DNA of 32,000 bases, from the IMG/VR virus record IMGVR_UViG_3300046542_000616, one strand, 5' to 3'. The first letter of the stretch is position 1. Each line of letters starts with the position of its first letter. Shown here in pieces: positions 4,500 to 8,947 of the stretch. A program made the position numbers and the translations under genes. Source of the DNA: a virus (lineage: Duplodnaviria > Heunggongvirae > Uroviricota > Caudoviricetes). Below the pieces are notes generated by a model. The model did not search any database. It was not told the DNA's origin and saw nothing but the letters and a program-made list of their open reading frames with translations.

Positions 4500-5750
4500 A
4501 TGAGTGGCACCAGTCTTAACTATGACATGCTGTCGAGGCAGCAAAATGGTCGTCTTACCCCCCTGATCCTGGGTGGCCCACCAGGCGCCGGTAAAACGCA
4601 TGCCGCCATGAGCCTGCGTAACAACCTCGGCGAGCCGTTTGCCCGTATCGCGGCAGCAGGCAAAACCAAGGAAGACTTCACGACCTATCCGATTCCGGAA
4701 CAGGACAAAGAGACCGGCATCTGGAAGATTGCTCAGCCAATCACCGAATCCAGCCTGCTGGCCCTGCTCGAAGTCAACATCAAAGATGGCTTCGGTGTTC
4801 TGCTGGTCGACGACGTAACCGCCGCTGACCCAAGCGTACAGAGCGCCCTGCTCGAGATCGCGCAGTTCGGTAAAATTGGTGAGCACCAACTGGGTAAAAA
4901 CGTCGCCATCGTCTTCACCGGTAACGGTGTTTCGGACGGTGCTTACGCTGCTCAGTGGAGTTCGGCACTGATCAACCGCTGCCACTACGTGGAATTCCGT
5001 GCCAGCCTGGACGTGTGGAAAGAACTCGACGAAAACGCCAACATCGACCCGGTCGTGTACGGTTTCCTCGAAGCCAACCCGCAGTTCTTTGCGCCGGAAG
5101 TCACCAACGCCGAAGACAAGAAAAAGTGCTTTGACGATAAAGGTCGCGGCCCATCTGCTCGTCAATGGACGACCCTGGCAAACTCCACTGTGGAGAAATG
5201 GGGCGGCATGGCCGGCTTCAAGCCAAGTGTTCTGTGGAAAAGCCTTCAGGAATACTGCGCATCGCTCGTTGGTAGTCAGACAGCAACCCCGCTGATGACG
5301 TACGCGACCATGATGTTGAAGTACCCAACCGCCAAGGCGCTGATGGACGATCCATCGGTATGGGATCGCGTGTCCGATGTTGACAAGAACCAGGCCGGTG
5401 CAATCTTCGCTGTGGCTCACTCACTGCGTCAGTACGTGACTCAGGTCAACGACCAGATCAATGAGAAGTACCAGCACAAGTACACCAGCAAAGCCGTCGA
5501 GCAGGAAAAAGACGCACTGCTCGACAAGTTCTGCCACGCCACGGCCAAGCTCATGCACAAGAACCGCGAAATGGGCGCTTTCATCGTCCGCTACGTGCTG
5601 CAAAAGTGCCCGGCTGACGACTGCATCAAAGGCCAGCTGGCTGACTACGTGTGGAACCTGGATGACAAGAAGCCAGCGCTGGTTGAAGCCAAGTTCGGCG
5701 ACATCCTCGACAACATCAAGGAAATGAACGAAGGTCTGGACAAGCGATAA
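4500..5750 (+). CDS. AAA+ ATPase (MoxR/AAA_5/CobS-like)
   Basis: - Walker A: GGPPGAGKT (nt 4572-4598).
- Walker B-like: VLLVDDV.
- Sensor-1-like: VFTGN.
- Arg-finger-like: LINR.
- AGAGG RBS upstream.
- About 200 aa of extra C-terminal sequence of unknown function. Confidence 0.9.
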   Translation: MSGTSLNYDMLSRQQNGRLTPLILGGPPGAGKTHAAMSLRNNLGEPFARIAAAGKTKEDFTTYPIPEQDKETGIWKIAQPITESSLLALLEVNIKDGFGVLLVDDVTAADPSVQSALLEIAQFGKIGEHQLGKNVAIVFTGNGVSDGAYAAQWSSALINRCHYVEFRASLDVWKELDENANIDPVVYGFLEANPQFFAPEVTNAEDKKKCFDDKGRGPSARQWTTLANSTVEKWGGMAGFKPSVLWKSLQEYCASLVGSQTATPLMTYATMMLKYPTAKALMDDPSVWDRVSDVDKNQAGAIFAVAHSLRQYVTQVNDQINEKYQHKYTSKAVEQEKDALLDKFCHATAKLMHKNREMGAFIVRYVLQKCPADDCIKGQLADYVWNLDDKKPALVEAKFGDILDNIKEMNEGLDKR

Positions 5751-5773
5751 TCCAGGTCGATCATTCAAGCAAG

Positions 5774-5798
5774 GCCCCTCATTGAGGGGCTTTTCTTT
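5774..5798 (+). terminator. rho-independent terminator
   Basis: GCCCCTC pairs with GAGGGGC (3-nt loop), followed by TTTTCTTT, 24 nt after the ATPase stop codon. Confidence 0.75.
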
Positions 5799-6134: not shown

Positions 6135-6180
6135 TTGATAGGCGGTTGAGAGGCGGAAGTTTGATGAGGTGGATAGAGGC
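6135..6180. repeat. tandem ~11-bp purine-rich direct repeats TTGA(T/G)AGGCGG
   Basis: TTGATAGGCGG (6135-6145), TTGAGAGGCGG (6146-6156), TTTGATGAGGTGG (6160-6172) and ATAGAGGC (6173-6180). Spacing is about one helical turn. Confidence 0.75.
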
Positions 6181-6421
6181 AAGGTACATAAGCTATCAAC
6201 AACTAGATCAATCCGGTAAAGCCAGATCAGCCAATCGATTAAAACACGAATGAATGTCGAACAACATGGTGTGAAACGAACCAATCGCATGATCAATACA
6301 TGAATGAATGCCGAACAACCGACTGCATTTATAATGAAGAAAAAATCAGTGGTTTTTGTGGTGCGGGCTCAGTCTCCCGTGCCAAAATCAGTTATATGTA
6401 GTTTTTTGCAGAGGGCTCGTA

Positions 6422-8947
6422 ATGAGTGAGGAAGTAAAAAAATTCAAGCCGGAGATGACTCCAGAGCCTGAAATGGACATGGAATTGTACAACCGACTGA
6501 AGTTTCTGCTCCTTGAGCTTCGAAACATCAGTCCGTTTTTCGGGATTCTGGCCACTGAAATGTGGATTGCCGGCCCGTCGAAGAGCGTCCCTACCATCGG
6601 CGTCTCAGAGCGCGGCGTGGTGGTTTACAACGAAGACTTCATGCGCAAGCTTTCCCCTGGTGAGCGTGTGGCGGTGATGGTGCACGAAGCCCTGCACGTT
6701 TCCCTGGACTACTGGAAACGTTTCCGTGGCCGTAACTGGAAAATTGCCAACTACGCTCACGACTTTGCGATCAACGACATCATCAAGAAGAGCATGTCGG
6801 ATCTGAAAATCGTTCGTAAGGGCGGTAAGGACGTCTACGACCTGGCGGTGAATCTGCCGGAAGGCGGCCTGTGGGATCCTAAGTACGAAAACATGTCCGG
6901 CGAAGAGATCTACAACATTCTCTTTGACGGTATTGCCAAGCGTTCCAGGGAAATTCAAGAGCAATACTTGAATACCATGAATGACCCGGCTGCCAAAGAA
7001 GCGTATGAGCGTGAGCAGAAGATCAAGGAAGAGCTGCGCAAGTCTCTGCAAAAGGCCGGCAAGCTGGTCAGCGAGAAGCAGGACGGCGCGTTAAGTGCTG
7101 CCAAAAGCGCTTCTGACAAAATTCGTGAAGAGGTGAAAGCCCAGAACGATGAGTTCGATGACTACCTGCGCAACCGTGAAAGCATTTCGCTGATCGACAA
7201 TCCGCGTGAACTGGAAGAAGAAGCCCAGCAAAACGCCGAGGGCAACGAGTCCTCGAAGGACGGCAGCGATCCAGGCGATGGCAAGGAGCCAGGTCAGGAA
7301 GGGAGCCAGCAGGGCTCTAACGATCCTTCAGCCGATCAGTCGCAGGATGGCGCTTCCCCGTCTAGCGATGGCCAGCCTCAAGCGGGCGCTGACAATCAGA
7401 ATGGCGCCGAGGGTCAGCAAACCCCTGGGCAAAATCCTTACGAAAAAGCCAGGCAAGACCTCAAGGACTCGATGCGCGATGCGGTCAAGGACTTCATGGG
7501 TGACGAGCGCAGCCGCATCGAAAACGATGTCGACGGCACGCCGGATGGCACCACACAACAGCAGAACCTCGACAAGCTGAGCGACAAGCTGGATGAAATT
7601 GGCGACGATTACGTTGATGACGTCACCAAGGCCCGTGAGGAAGGTCATGAGGAGCCTGGTGAAGGTCAGCCAGGAGAGGGCGAGCCTGGTGAAGGCGATC
7701 CTGGTAAAGATGGAGAGCCTCAGCCTGGAGAAGGCAAGCCAGGCAAGGACGGTCAGCCACAACCTGGTGAAGGTCAGCCAGGAGAAGGGGGCGAGCCTCA
7801 GCCGGGCGACGGTAGTGAGCCGGGCGACGGTGGCGAACCTCAGCCTGGTGAAGGTAACCAGCCTGGTCAGGGCCAAGGTCAAGGTCAAGGTCAAGGTCAA
7901 GGTCAAGGTCAAGGTCAAGGTCAAGGTCAGCCACAGCCTGGCCAGGGCGGACAACCAGGGCAAGGTGGCCAGCAGCAGCCGGTGTCAGAAAAAACGGCTC
8001 GCCAGGACGTGTCTGATGCCATCAAGGATCTGGTCGATGAGATCAGTAACTCCTTGTCTGGACAACCTAACGGCATGCCGGGCGTAGACAAGCAAATGGC
8101 CTCGGGTGAGGACGTCATGGACAGTGACGGCTTCAATCAAGCGGTGCGCGAGTTGCAGGAGCAGCTGGGCGGCGGGATGGAGGGTGACGTTGACATGGAT
8201 TGCTCGGAGATTCCGGGTAACCCCTACAAAAACGAGACCAAGGATCAACTGGAAGAGCGTCGTCGTCAGATGATGCAGCGCGCTATCACCGAGGACGTAC
8301 AGAACGGCGGGAAGTTCTACGGCACCATGCCAGGCTGGATGAAGTCGGAAATCGACGACATTCTCTACCCGCCTGCCAACTTCAGCCAGTCGCTGACGAA
8401 GTTCATCGGCCCGTACGGTGCAGTGAACAAGCGCTCGTTCTCTGTGCGTAACAAACGCAACACGTTCTGGGATAACCACATCATTCGCCCAGGGATGAAA
8501 AAGAACTCGGCCATCATCTACATCATCATGGACGTGTCTGGCTCGATGATGAACGGTGCGGATGCGGACAACCTGCGTCACGCCATGGGCCTGGTAGAGC
8601 AACTGTCCCTCGGCCTGCAGCTGGAGGTGAAGGTGATCCAGAACGACACCGGCATCACCCGAGTGCTGAACACCAGGGAAGCGATGGAAGAAGTCGCGGC
8701 CAGGAAGTTCGAGGTTCATGGCCAGGGCGGTTCTGACCTGTCGCCGGCATTCGACTTCATCTGGAAAGAGATGATGATCGAGAACGGCAATCGGGGTAAC
8801 CCTGTGATCGTGTTCACGGACGGTGCGATTGTGGTGCCTGAGAAGGTGCCTGACGGCCTGAGACAGGAAGTTATGTGGGTGACCCTGCCAGGGCAAAACG
8901 CTCCAACCAAAGACTGGGGTGAGCACGTTATCCTGGAAAACCTGTGA
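6422..8947 (+). CDS. putative zinc-metallopeptidase (DUF2201_N-like, HExxH) and C-terminal VWA-domain protein with a very long acidic low-complexity insert
   Basis: - Start moved to ATG 6422 (MSEEVKK...), preceded by GAGGG.
- HEALH at nt 6683-6697 sits in the context PFFG...VMVHEALHV...W..ANYAHDFAINDII, which is typical of the DUF2201 N-terminal peptidase-like domain.
- MIDAS motif DVSGS at nt 8531-8545, and a VFTDG motif near the C-terminus.
- Strong terminator downstream. Confidence 0.9.
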   Translation: MSEEVKKFKPEMTPEPEMDMELYNRLKFLLLELRNISPFFGILATEMWIAGPSKSVPTIGVSERGVVVYNEDFMRKLSPGERVAVMVHEALHVSLDYWKRFRGRNWKIANYAHDFAINDIIKKSMSDLKIVRKGGKDVYDLAVNLPEGGLWDPKYENMSGEEIYNILFDGIAKRSREIQEQYLNTMNDPAAKEAYEREQKIKEELRKSLQKAGKLVSEKQDGALSAAKSASDKIREEVKAQNDEFDDYLRNRESISLIDNPRELEEEAQQNAEGNESSKDGSDPGDGKEPGQEGSQQGSNDPSADQSQDGASPSSDGQPQAGADNQNGAEGQQTPGQNPYEKARQDLKDSMRDAVKDFMGDERSRIENDVDGTPDGTTQQQNLDKLSDKLDEIGDDYVDDVTKAREEGHEEPGEGQPGEGEPGEGDPGKDGEPQPGEGKPGKDGQPQPGEGQPGEGGEPQPGDGSEPGDGGEPQPGEGNQPGQGQGQGQGQGQGQGQGQGQGQPQPGQGGQPGQGGQQQPVSEKTARQDVSDAIKDLVDEISNSLSGQPNGMPGVDKQMASGEDVMDSDGFNQAVRELQEQLGGGMEGDVDMDCSEIPGNPYKNETKDQLEERRRQMMQRAITEDVQNGGKFYGTMPGWMKSEIDDILYPPANFSQSLTKFIGPYGAVNKRSFSVRNKRNTFWDNHIIRPGMKKNSAIIYIIMDVSGSMMNGADADNLRHAMGLVEQLSLGLQLEVKVIQNDTGITRVLNTREAMEEVAARKFEVHGQGGSDLSPAFDFIWKEMMIENGNRGNPVIVFTDGAIVVPEKVPDGLRQEVMWVTLPGQNAPTKDWGEHVILENL
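7865..7930 (+). repeat. hexanucleotide microsatellite encoding (Gly-Gln)x11
   Basis: Eight perfect GGTCAA units at 7877-7924 are flanked by GGTCAG GGCCAA and GGTCAG. The tract lies inside the 6422-8947 CDS. Because the unit length is 6 nt, any copy-number change stays in frame. Confidence 0.95.

Follow-up and report, generated by a model that had tools for sequence, protein, structure and literature searches.

A MoxR-like ATPase and a zincin-peptidase/VWA protein form a megaplasmid-backbone version of the N4 gp24/gp25-type mobile-element module

Introduction

What does a gene pair encoding a MoxR-like AAA+ ATPase along with a peptidase-VWA protein do on a megaplasmid: does it guard the host, mature a metalloenzyme, or serve the element that carries it? 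The window analyzed here is a stretch of 32,000 nucleotides, part of a 1.28-Mb metagenomic contig that falls in the pMPPla107/pBASL58 family of Pseudomonas megaplasmids, which bears out the plasmid location given in the initial annotation. The two genes constitute the N4 gp24/gp25-type mobile-element module in the form carried on the megaplasmid backbone; this is a known and widespread kind of module and not a recognized defense system.

Results

A MoxR-like ATPase with a helical C-terminal extension

The ATPase gene and its upstream region have the following features.

4319–4347 (+): terminator-like hairpin of the upstream gene, 11-bp stem, −16.6 kcal/mol, T-run
4350–4499 (+): presumed ATPase promoter region, AT-rich by sequence, directly after the 4319–4347 hairpin
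4500–5750 (+): ATPase ORF, 416 aa, MoxR clade 7 AAA+, phrog_1297 / N4 gp24 type
4572–4598 (+): Walker A GGPPGAGKT; G26, G29 and K32 invariant, T33 nearly invariant (36 homologues)
4686–4697 (+): YPIP motif opening the helix-2-insert β-hairpin; P64 and P66 conserved, strands 65–68 and 75–78 in the model
4797–4817 (+): Walker B VLLVDDV, with DD replacing the canonical DE; D104/D105 conserved throughout the plasmid clade
4917–4979 (+): sensor 1 TGNG (N142) and presumed arginine finger ALINR (R160); N142 and R160 invariant
5151–5168 (+): sensor 2 region PSARQW (R221); R221 invariant in the alignment

Conservation was scored on an alignment of 36 homologues. The MoxR/AAA_5-like assignment made in the initial annotation holds: both Walker motifs that it had quoted are in place, and the Pfam search recovered AAA_5, barely above threshold (E = 6e-5, 23.5 bits, gathering cut-off 22). 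The protein also matched phrog_1297 (6e-35), and the best PDB match of the family profile was midasin (1.6e-23). The AlphaFold2 (AF2) model (pLDDT 87.3) shows the helix-2-insert and pre-sensor-1 hairpins. It divides into an AAA+ module (aa 1–235) and a C-terminal extension, which the initial annotation had noted and which is confirmed here as an all-helical segment in the predicted structure (aa ~236–416, mean pLDDT 80–93) without a match in the Pfam profile search. In Foldseek comparisons the ATPase superposed best on NorQ–NorD VWA complexes (TM 0.61) and CbbQ2, while the entire protein, extension included, superposed on phage gp24-like ATPases (TM ~0.6, >400 columns). As modeled, the helical extension is common to the megaplasmid and the phage gp24-like ATPases. 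The phage gp24-type relatives keep DE in Walker B, whereas the entire plasmid clade has DD, and with this substitution ATP turnover may be slow or switch-like.

A zincin-peptidase/VWA partner with a polyanionic insert

The features of the second gene are as follows.

6422–8947 (+): zincin-peptidase/VWA ORF, 841 aa, DUF2201_N plus DUF2201, phrog_1314, N4 gp25 type
6683–6697 and 6755–6778 (+): zinc site HEALH and AHDFAIND; first His and Asp invariant in 63 sequences
6947–8236 (+): ~430-aa insert inside the peptidase domain (aa ~176–605)
7187–8029 (+): G/Q/D/E/P low-complexity core of the insert by sequence, aa 256–536, net charge −42
7865–7929 (+): (GGTCAA)n microsatellite, translated as (GQ)n and varying in length by sample
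8531–8827 (+): MIDAS within the compact VWA domain at the C-terminus, three elements, from sequence conservation
8531–8545 (+): MIDAS DVSGS, recomputed coordinates
8720–8737 (+): MIDAS element GQGGSD, recomputed coordinates
8813–8827 (+): MIDAS element FTDGA, recomputed coordinates

Both ORFs, of 416 and 841 aa, proved correctly delimited at the outset. A longer TTG start at 6356 was considered for the VWA protein and rejected, because the homologues start at MSEEV/MSNAA and GAGGG lies 7 nt upstream of the ATG at 6422. The initial annotation had staked its domain reading on AAA_5, DUF2201_N and DUF2201, all of which were recovered by the Pfam search, the latter two at E = 2e-15 (57.6 bits, gathering cut-off 23.2) and E = 2e-6 (28.3 bits, gathering cut-off 26.4), respectively. 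The protein also matched phrog_1314 (2e-41). HEALH and DVSGS are at the positions first reported, and the HExxH-peptidase and VWA reading stands. Among 63 homologues, the Glu and second His of the zinc site are nearly invariant, and the DxSGS, GGGG(S/T) and TDG elements are each at least 90% conserved. Catalytic and MIDAS positions show little or no variation across the 63 VWA-protein and 36 ATPase homologues, which marks the motifs as more than chance resemblances. The conserved Asp of AHDFAIND is likely the third zinc ligand. The peptidase profile matched the minigluzincin selecase MJ1213 (E = 2e-4; Foldseek probability 0.9–0.97). Selecase and jannalysin of Methanocaldococcus jannaschii, related to M48/M56, are the sole solved structures that resemble the peptidase core, and the resemblance is weak (Foldseek E 0.02–0.1, TM 0.4–0.5 over ~100 residues). 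Unlike these minigluzincins, the DUF2201_N domain is ~270 aa long, has extra helices and probably uses Asp as third ligand. Judged by its sequence, the partner is a minimal gluzincin-like zinc peptidase domain joined to a compact VWA domain with an intact MIDAS.

The insert core is flanked by charged helical segments, and the insertion point corresponds to a low-confidence loop (residues 160–186) in the model of a short homologue. The polyanionic insert spans 430–530 aa among the megaplasmid clade, and its core has a dN/dS of 0.17. At the microsatellite, three additional GQ units in locus L001 give a protein of 847 instead of 841 aa. Midasin/Rea1, the eukaryotic ribosome-assembly AAA+ protein, offers a parallel: its AAA_5 ring cooperates with a MIDAS domain, ahead of which lies a long unstructured stretch rich in D/E. 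Midasin is a single, very large chain that comprises six AAA modules and lacks a peptidase, and the likeness of the megaplasmid insert to its acidic region is an analogy only.

Separate transcription signals for the two genes

The following elements lie between and after the genes.

5771–5798 (+): intrinsic terminator after the ATPase gene, hairpin 5771–5793 with T-tract, −17.9 kcal/mol
5799–6421 (+): non-coding spacer between the genes, from six-frame comparisons and Rfam
5879–5906 (+): tandem repeat GCTTTGGA, 3.5 copies, within the spacer
6102–6117 (+): conserved G-rich box TGGTGGGGTGTGGGGG, within the spacer
6248–6265 and 6302–6319 (+): direct repeat GAATGAATGYCGAACAAC, two copies 54 bp apart; two matches versus 0.07 expected
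6330–6335 (+): TATAAT after the GAATGAATGYCGAACAAC repeats, from the sequence
8963–8989 (+): intrinsic-terminator hairpin after the VWA gene, hairpin 8963–8987, 11-bp stem, U-run, −18.7 kcal/mol

Each gene had been credited with its own terminator, and both hairpins were found in place; that of the ATPase gene is also present in loci L008 and L009 and in pMPPla107. The spacer, 0.5–0.7 kb throughout the megaplasmid clade, had no conserved coding potential in a six-frame comparison with seven homologous spacers and no match in Rfam. The GAATGAATGYCGAACAAC copies are paired in L008, L009 and L013 as well and are absent from the remainder of the window; they may serve the promoter of the VWA gene as an operator or activator site. 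Most likely, each gene of the megaplasmid pair is under a separate promoter and terminator. With a terminator and 0.6 kb of DNA between the genes, the ATPase and the VWA protein need not be co-produced.

The pair in megaplasmids and phages

The two genes were found in unchanged order in all eight independent megaplasmid relatives examined, as a syntenic backbone feature and not a variable island, and in single copy wherever copy number was checked (three host genomes and two complete plasmids). Across all segments of the pair dN/dS is 0.08–0.20, and the identities of the two proteins drop in parallel from locus to locus. In pBASL58 the peptidase-VWA gene is interrupted, a point against the explanation favored here; the interruption is either a sequencing error or a sign that this gene is dispensable.

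The same two families, PHROG 1297 and PHROG 1314, comprise gp24 (AAA ATPase) and gp25 (vWFA protein) of coliphage N4, a core pair of N4-like phages that occurs in rV5-like phages too. They are matched by gp36/gp38 of the N4-like phage PWJ, gp004/gp012 of rV5 and one Burkholderia plasmid pair; a search with PWJ gp36 matched 848 phage records altogether, N4 gp24 among them at 40% identity. The ATPase/VWA pairing recognized at the outset holds. The megaplasmid and N4-type pairs share their Pfam architecture (AAA_5, then DUF2201_N plus DUF2201), identical gene order, location on mobile elements and the fold of the ATPase with its helical extension. Yet the ATPases are only 21–27% identical, and that of the megaplasmid is ~60 aa longer. 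The megaplasmid partner has 841–950 aa, compared to ~400 in the N4 type, because of the acidic insert, and the N4-type genes are adjacent or have one small gene between them, whereas those of the megaplasmid are split by a terminator and non-coding DNA. The polyanionic insert, the Walker B DD and the long intergenic spacer are special to the megaplasmid clade.

A tblastn search with the VWA half found ~350-kb Salmonella, Escherichia and Klebsiella phages of the group 2.2 jumbo type. Iyer, Anantharaman, Krishnan, Burroughs and Aravind (2021) described, for group 2.2 jumbo phages, a pair of MoxR AAA+ and metallopeptidase-vWA proteins of the same architecture and proposed virion assembly with proteolytic processing (PMC7824862). 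Unlike the megaplasmid protein, the jumbo-phage partner is without the long insert, and a virion-assembly role is inapplicable to a plasmid.

Discussion

The mechanism that we propose is borrowed from known MoxR/VWA machines. As in NorQ–NorD, CbbQ–CbbO and midasin, the ATPase would assemble into a hexamer. The hexamer would dock a single partner molecule by its VWA domain, the MIDAS metal would bind an acidic residue on a target protein, and ATP turnover would tug the flexible acidic segment of the partner. The target would thereby be remodeled and either handed to the attached peptidase or exposed to it. NorQ/NorD and CbbQ/CbbO provide the precedent: there, a single VWA protein docks on the hexamer, and the linker is what is remodeled (PMC9976466, PMC13036017). 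As a whole explanation, we lean, with modest confidence, towards an N4-type module with this remodeling-peptidase mechanism that serves the mobile element.

Several alternatives draw on features of the window outside the pair.

1848–2519: Panacea-domain gene
12074–13393: HipA gene
17252–18367: TrfA-like gene

The alternative that fares best, though we regard it as unlikely, is that the pair might act as chaperone and protease in the assembly and maturation of some large machine encoded by the element, which on the megaplasmid would be the type IV secretion/conjugation apparatus. The analogy is with the role proposed for the jumbo-phage pair (PMC7824862) and with a MoxR/VWA pair that Acidianus two-tailed virus carries. 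The megaplasmids of this family are typed MPF_I, and on the Burkholderia plasmid VirB11-like and TrbC/VirB2 genes come directly downstream of the pair; yet no secretion genes flank the pair in the window or in the relatives, and no machine is common to lytic phages and plasmids. Against assembly, too, the pair of N4-like and rV5-like phages sits among early/middle, replication-side genes and not structural ones, and the V5-like phage ATPase was needed conditionally, against DS-28 only (see below), which is unexpected for a virion-assembly factor.

The initial annotation had raised the possibility of an NTP-dependent conflict or defense system of the vWA-MoxR type, which the plasmid would carry to guard its host against phages or rival elements. 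Like those systems, the pair has a core of MoxR and vWA and presumably takes part in genetic conflict, and the toxin-antitoxin genes HipA and Panacea are near the pair. However, the systems of Kaur, Burroughs, Iyer and Aravind (2020) are ternary, with VMAP, iSTAND, FtsH or a β-propeller as third component, and their vWA protein bears C-terminal effectors (PMC7159879). The megaplasmid pair has no such third gene, its VWA domain lies C-terminal, behind the peptidase and without effector domains, the reverse of the defining architecture, and it is not tied to multicellular lineages. PADLOC gave no significant match for the pair, which is single-copy syntenic backbone, and the same family belongs to the core genes of strictly lytic phages. 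We find this frame improbable, and it is not sustained.

The other frame of the initial annotation, a metal-cofactor-insertion or enzyme-activating chaperone of the NorQ/NorD, CbbQ/CbbO, CoxD/CoxE or CobS/CobT type for a plasmid metalloenzyme, fares slightly worse still. Here the solved structures are the closest (TM 0.56–0.62 for NorQ and CbbQ, of the MoxR CGN subfamily with VWA adaptors), and the partner has a NorD-like layout of N-terminal domain, disordered linker and C-terminal VWA with MIDAS. Sequence identity is 14–15%, however, and the ATPase has an additional ~180-aa helical domain. No metalloenzyme gene that could encode a client is linked to the pair at any of the loci; the N-terminal partner domain is a zincin peptidase with a conserved HExxH+D site that those chaperones lack, and the presence in lytic phages also counts against it.

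A remodeler of the replication initiator, by analogy with ClpX activating TrfA of RK2, would fit the TrfA-like gene ~8 kb downstream of the pair (1.5 kb from it in L008) and the replication genes beside it in N4-like phages, but this highly improbable reading is already largely refuted by the TrfA distribution: the pair occurs without a TrfA homologue in pMPPla107, a P. serbica plasmid and pMPCFBP13716, trfA of pBASL58 is ~183 kb away, and most TrfA-bearing plasmids are without the pair, given 125 plasmid records in the TrfA search and full-length ATPase relatives on four plasmids only.

For the favored N4-type module serving its element, we speculate that the target could be a host protein, with establishment or counter-defense as the benefit to the element, a possibility that we hold tentatively. 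In a transposon screen, the V5-like phage gene bas54_0063, a "MoxR ATPase", was required against DS-28, a predicted defense system; the screen flagged the ATPase, and the peptidase partner is not reported among its findings (preprint 10.1101/2025.11.20.689424). This gene is almost certainly of the phrog_1297 family, judging from the sister phage Bas57 rather than from Bas54 itself; the phrog_1297 gene of Bas57 is bas57_0062, annotated "MoxR ATPase". A MoxR ATPase by which a V5-like phage overcomes DS-28 points to counter-defense by the element rather than to defense. The sole functional hint for the N4-type family is one of counter-defense by the mobile element, and not of host defense.

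A gene pair of the phage N4 gp24/gp25 type

Profile searches placed both proteins in phage families. The ATPase matched phrog_1297 (6e-35) and its peptidase-VWA partner phrog_1314 (2e-41), and the same two PHROG families, along with the Pfam architecture, recur in gp36/gp38 of the N4-like phage PWJ, in gp004/gp012 of phage rV5 and in a Burkholderia plasmid pair. The PWJ record notes gp38 as 'N4 gp25-like', and a search with PWJ gp36 recovered N4 gp24 itself at 40% identity, with 848 phage records in all. In the literature, N4 gp24 appears as a putative AAA ATPase and gp25 as a vWFA protein (PMC2784036). 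The module was also found in jumbo phages of approximately 350 kb. Judged by these matches, the pair in the window is a megaplasmid-borne module of the N4 gp24/gp25 type found on mobile elements. Recomputation of the reading frames and motifs reproduced exactly the coordinates of the initial annotation:

4500-5750, + strand: ATPase open reading frame, ATG start, 416 aa
4572-4598, + strand: Walker A of the ATPase
4797-4817, + strand: Walker B of the ATPase
6422-8947, + strand: peptidase-VWA open reading frame, ATG start, 841 aa
6683-6697, + strand: HEALH of the peptidase domain
8531-8545, + strand: DVSGS of the MIDAS, the metal site of the VWA domain

A longer reading frame of the partner, from a TTG at 6356, is not supported; its homologues begin at MSEEV or MSNAA, and the ATG at 6422 has a GAGGG ribosome-binding site ahead of it.

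Three protein segments (the ATPase and the N- and C-terminal halves of the partner) were used as tblastn queries to place the pair in related loci. In the window, as in each of the nine other loci where both genes were located by sequence, the ATPase comes first, followed by the N-half and the C-half (eight of these loci are of the megaplasmid type, and the ninth is L010, which encodes a short 448-aa VWA relative). The identities of the three segments drop together across loci, as in the following examples.

Identity of the three query segments in related loci
L008 (megaplasmid-type locus): ATPase 73%, N-half 66%, C-half 64%
L005 (pMPPla107): ATPase 37%, N-half 53%, C-half 47%
L010 (short VWA relative): ATPase 36%, N-half 34%, C-half 35%

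Three complete host genomes and two plasmids each contain one copy of DUF2201_N. On a conjugative plasmid of Burkholderia aenigmatica (NZ_CP091649.1, 3941-8789), a phrog_1297 ATPase, an unassigned gene product of 308 aa and a canonical DUF2201 protein of 418 aa are encoded directly upstream of VirB11-like and TrbC/VirB2 genes. A 'homing endonuclease' encoded four genes downstream of the PA5oct ATPase was considered as a VWA partner and discarded, being a real nuclease. PHROG 1314 carries the label 'HNH endonuclease', as do several phage records (rV5 gp012, at 1-1259 on the minus strand of locus L017; Salmonella phage PHA46). Proteins of this type contain DUF2201_N and DUF2201 but lack an HNH domain, and the label is therefore probably an annotation error that has spread between records.

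Two small orphan genes lie upstream of the ATPase in the window (3327-3752, minus strand; 3817-4287, plus strand). Both are conserved and syntenic in pMPPla107 (4206-5149 of that locus; 32% and 43% identity), although an inserted HDOD-domain gene keeps them apart from the ATPase there, and neither had a match in Pfam, NCBIfam or PHROGs. We took them as backbone synteny and not as a third component of the system. The gene downstream of the pair is not conserved. Elsewhere in the window, a HipA kinase toxin gene (HipA_C, 3.8e-52) and an adjacent HTH antitoxin gene, the latter called in identical contigs, occupy 12074-13740 on the minus strand, and a SocA/Panacea-domain gene stands separately at 1848-2519 on the plus strand, like HipA at most 8 kb from the pair. 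The HipBA insertion is missing in two related loci, L008 and L009.

The replicon

The initial annotation had described the pair as plasmid-borne, and this was borne out. The same ATPase, identical in sequence, is found on a JGI metagenome contig of 1,282,131 bp, and sister samples yielded shorter contigs that also encode it. The only full-length ATPase relatives in PLSDB were on four Pseudomonas plasmids of 0.90-1.17 Mb, those of P. silesiensis (46.5% identity) and FeN3W (41%), pBASL58 (40%) and pMPPla107 (37%). A scan of species-representative genomes added three further loci, on a 1.06-Mb P. serbica plasmid, on the 971-kb pMPCFBP13716 and on a 450-kb P. nitroreducens contig. Since the ATPase resides on a 1.28-Mb contig and its full-length relatives on Pseudomonas megaplasmids, the window is assigned by sequence to the pMPPla107/pBASL58 megaplasmid family. 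This family was described by Smith et al., who leave the two genes unmentioned (bioRxiv 10.1101/385575). Near-identical DNA was absent from PLSDB and the phage collection, where nothing exceeded a 35-bp chance match.

The window also encodes a TrfA-like initiator (17252-18367, minus strand), with homologues of about 50% identity in 125 Pseudomonas plasmid records, mostly P. aeruginosa megaplasmids of 0.3-0.4 Mb. A TrfA homologue is present in pBASL58 and missing from pMPPla107, the P. serbica plasmid and pMPCFBP13716; thus, replication modules vary within the family of approximately 1-Mb megaplasmids.

The ATPase

The Pfam AAA_5 profile recognized the ATPase by a narrow margin (23.5 bits against a cut-off of 22), while a profile of the ATPase family matched midasin at 1.6e-23. 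In an alignment of 36 ATPase homologues, G26, G29 and K32 of Walker A are invariant and T33 is nearly so. Sensor-1 N142, sensor-2 R221 and R160, the presumed arginine finger, are likewise invariant, and a YPxP motif is conserved where the hairpin inserted into helix 2 begins. The Walker B motif reads VLLVDD (hhhhDD). Its second acidic residue is aspartate throughout the plasmid clade, whereas the phage relatives (PWJ gp36, PA5oct) keep the catalytic glutamate. Downstream of it, the MoxR-like DPxxQSALLE motif is intact.

The AlphaFold model of the ATPase (mean pLDDT 87.3) contains both a helix-2-insert hairpin (strands 65-68/75-78) and a pre-sensor-1 hairpin (129-131/135-141), which are hallmarks of clade-7 AAA+ proteins. 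Foldseek matched this model to MCM subunits and MoxR proteins in the PDB, with the best superpositions on NorQ-NorD VWA complexes (TM 0.61-0.62) and on CbbQ2 (TM 0.56). By profile, motifs and predicted fold, the protein belongs to the MoxR clade (clade 7) of AAA+ ATPases, for which ATP hydrolysis and a hexameric state are predicted.

The C-terminal extension of some 200 aa that the initial annotation could not assign is real, and is now traced to the gp24-type family. It spans residues ~236-416, all helical and well predicted by AlphaFold. When the extension alone was searched against 1.84 billion proteins, it retrieved no more than ten cluster representatives, in each case at the C-terminus of a protein of 380-473 aa. 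The phrog_1297 profile reaches residue 359, well into the extension, and Foldseek aligned the whole ATPase over more than 400 columns (TM ~0.6) with viral models that include the 'Gp24-like protein' of phage RaK2 and Bacillus phage G gp566, among others. These C-terminal-only matches, the coverage by phrog_1297 and the full-length alignments indicate that the extension is the family's own domain, common to phage gp24-type ATPases; only its last ~55 residues are specific to the clade.

The peptidase-VWA protein and its acidic insert

The partner protein exceeded the Pfam gathering scores for both DUF2201_N (PF13203; 57.6 against 23.2 bits) and DUF2201 (PF09967; 28.3 against 26.4 bits), so that all three domain predictions of the initial annotation were recovered, AAA_5 just above its cut-off. 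Among 63 homologues, the first histidine of HExxH and an aspartate 26 residues downstream (AHDFAIN) are invariant, and the glutamate and second histidine of HExxH nearly so. The window protein carries HEALH (aa 88-92) and AHDFAIND, the latter with the probable acidic ligand downstream of HExxH. The MIDAS elements DxSGS, GGGG(S/T) and TDG are at least 90% conserved in the same homologues and are complete in the window protein (DVSGS, GQGGSD, FTDGA), and a WGxH tail is conserved at the C-terminus. The protein is predicted to be a DUF2201_N zinc peptidase with a C-terminal VWA domain and a complete MIDAS.

The fold of the peptidase domain was approached through the 448-aa relative of L010, which has a complete DUF2201_N and, on either side of the insert, shares 34-35% identity with the window protein. 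Its model is a single compact helical domain (pLDDT 86.5, pTM 0.82). Meaningful structural similarity was limited to two archaeal minigluzincins, selecase and jannalysin (Foldseek E 0.02-0.1, probability 0.9-0.97), a likeness also seen with hmmsearch (2e-4); this Foldseek search returned no close solved structure. A kinship with SprT/SPRTN-type DNA-protein-crosslink proteases was dismissed, as it appeared only within Foldseek noise (rank 46, E = 5).

Pfam and pairwise alignments agree that the peptidase domain of the window protein is interrupted. Residues 33-175 correspond to the first half of the profile, and the second half of the L010 domain has its counterpart in residues ~606-700. The insertion falls at the only low-confidence loop of the L010 model (residues 160-186), where short relatives have about 30 G/Q/D-rich residues and the megaplasmid clade has 430-530. 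In this clade the insert consists of charged helical flanks around a G/Q/D/E/P low-complexity core that has a net charge of -42 to -69. The core contains a (GGTCAA)n microsatellite at 7865-7929, which encodes (GQ)n. Between two metagenome loci (L001 and L003), this tract differs by three units, giving proteins of 847 and 841 aa, and the core carries three point substitutions besides; the ATPase is identical between these samples. We computed dN/dS by segment against an 84%-identical relative (L019) and obtained 0.08 for the N-terminal half of the peptidase domain, 0.14 for the C-terminal half together with the VWA domain, and 0.17 for the low-complexity core. As the ratio is low in the core too, the sequence comparison indicates that the insert is maintained as protein and is not decaying, being under purifying selection yet variable in length.

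The orthologue on pBASL58 (NZ_CP032678.1, 8685-11341) is broken. Read from its start codon, the frame stops after 208 aa, an internal TGA was met in the family search, and the record splits the gene into three CDS, of which one runs antisense through the low-complexity part. Either this copy is a true pseudogene or the repeat was misassembled.

The intergenic spacer

Each gene has its own terminator, in agreement with the initial annotation; strong hairpins followed by T-runs close both the ATPase gene (5771-5798; -17.9 kcal/mol) and the VWA gene (-18.7 kcal/mol). The other elements in and around the spacer are as follows:

4319-4347: third terminator hairpin, closing the upstream gene
Between the ATPase and VWA genes: intergenic spacer of 671 bp
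In the spacer, after the terminator: GCTTTGGA tandem repeat
6102-6117: conserved G-rich box in the spacer
6248-6265 and 6302-6319: direct repeat GAATGAATGYCGAACAAC, upstream of the VWA gene

In eight of the eight megaplasmid relatives examined, 0.4-0.7 kb likewise separate the two genes. No Rfam family was detected over the whole window, the spacer included. A hidden gene was sought by six-frame comparison of eight homologous spacers and rejected. Only short blocks emerged, and because they score in several frames they represent conserved DNA rather than protein. An 81-aa minus-strand ORF (6051-6296) was also turned down as a gene, as it is unrelated to the small ORF annotated at the same place in pMPPla107. 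The direct repeat occurs twice, against 0.07 copies expected by chance, and nowhere else in the window. Paired copies recur in the spacers of three related megaplasmid-type loci (L008, L009, L013), with a core of TGYCGAACAAC and 43-54 bp apart. A TATAAT begins 10 nt after the end of the second GAATGAATGYCGAACAAC copy. The repeats may be where a regulator binds at a promoter belonging to the VWA gene itself.

Relation to known systems and possible function

We favor the reading that the pair acts on a host protein to the benefit of the element, because the family spans lytic phages and plasmids that have no common machine to assemble, and because an action specific to TrfA can be rejected. The first of these points counts against the best-supported alternative, a chaperone-protease for the assembly of type IV secretion systems or virions. 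The best support for the latter is the Burkholderia plasmid, with its pair immediately ahead of the VirB11-like and TrbC/VirB2 genes. For group 2.2 jumbo phages, Iyer et al. (2021) described a MoxR and metallopeptidase-vWA pair and proposed a role in virion assembly (PMC7824862).

Next in rank is a plasmid-borne defense system, as the initial annotation had suggested from vWA-MoxR conflict systems. Those of Kaur et al. (2020) are ternary, and their vWA protein bears C-terminal effectors. In contrast, the VWA here is itself the C-terminal domain and its only companion is the N-terminal peptidase, and searches of the flanking genes with Pfam, NCBIfam and PHROG found no VMAP, iSTAND, FtsH or beta-propeller third component. 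PADLOC-DB 2.0 gave no significant defense-protein match (best 13-14 bits, E about 0.006-0.007). The defense reading is not supported.

The initial annotation had also invoked metal-insertion chaperones, the third alternative. In NorQ/NorD, mechanistically the best studied of the relatives, a NorQ hexamer holds one NorD, which reaches into the pore with a finger of its VWA domain and also makes contact through its C-terminus; the client is bound by the MIDAS, and the ATPase remodels a disordered NorD linker. The window partner is laid out much like NorD, with a flexible acidic segment between its N-terminal domain and its C-terminal VWA. No client enzyme gene of the NorQD/CbbQO type is linked to the pair in the window or in any related locus. 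The description and domain predictions of the initial annotation stood, and its functional framing was right only in part. Remodeling of TrfA, ranked last and suggested by the TrfA-like gene in the window, is essentially excluded, since three megaplasmids with the pair have no TrfA homologue and the 125 TrfA-matching plasmid records contrast with full-length ATPase relatives on only four plasmids.

The one experimental hint found comes from a phage relative. According to the HIDEN-SEQ preprint, Bas54, a V5-like phage, has a specific requirement for bas54_0063, described as 'a MoxR ATPase', in overcoming DS-28, which is predicted to be a defense system of E. coli. The gene bas54_0063 is very likely a phrog_1297 member, as rV5 gp004 belongs strongly to that family (2e-110), its counterpart is annotated 'MoxR ATPase' across V5-like phages, and the sister BASEL phage Bas57 has the ATPase as bas57_0062 and the metallopeptidase partner as bas57_0054. 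A bolder proposal, to which we attach a rather low probability, is that the gp24/gp25-type module is a general ATP-driven counter-defense protease of mobile elements, whose MIDAS would seize a host immune or restriction protein for remodeling and cleavage. Under this proposal the polyanionic loop of 430-530 aa could be a nucleic-acid-mimicking decoy or a long tether, and, if true, no example on a plasmid would precede the megaplasmid version.

The pair adds a new member, of unusual architecture, to a mobile-element module that is widespread and already catalogued; the gp24/gp25-type family is large and conserved in several phage groups and in plasmids. The value of the pair rests on the polyanionic insert, the DD Walker B and the experimental tractability of the plasmid copy, which is easier to dissect than one in an obligately lytic phage. 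pMPPla107 is described as transferable into laboratory Pseudomonas strains, and the pair is single-copy on it, so that deletion and point mutants of the megaplasmid pair could be compared in transfer, establishment and cost while the element itself survives. The polyanionic insert and the DD Walker B are natural variants that could reveal which part of the machine transmits force.
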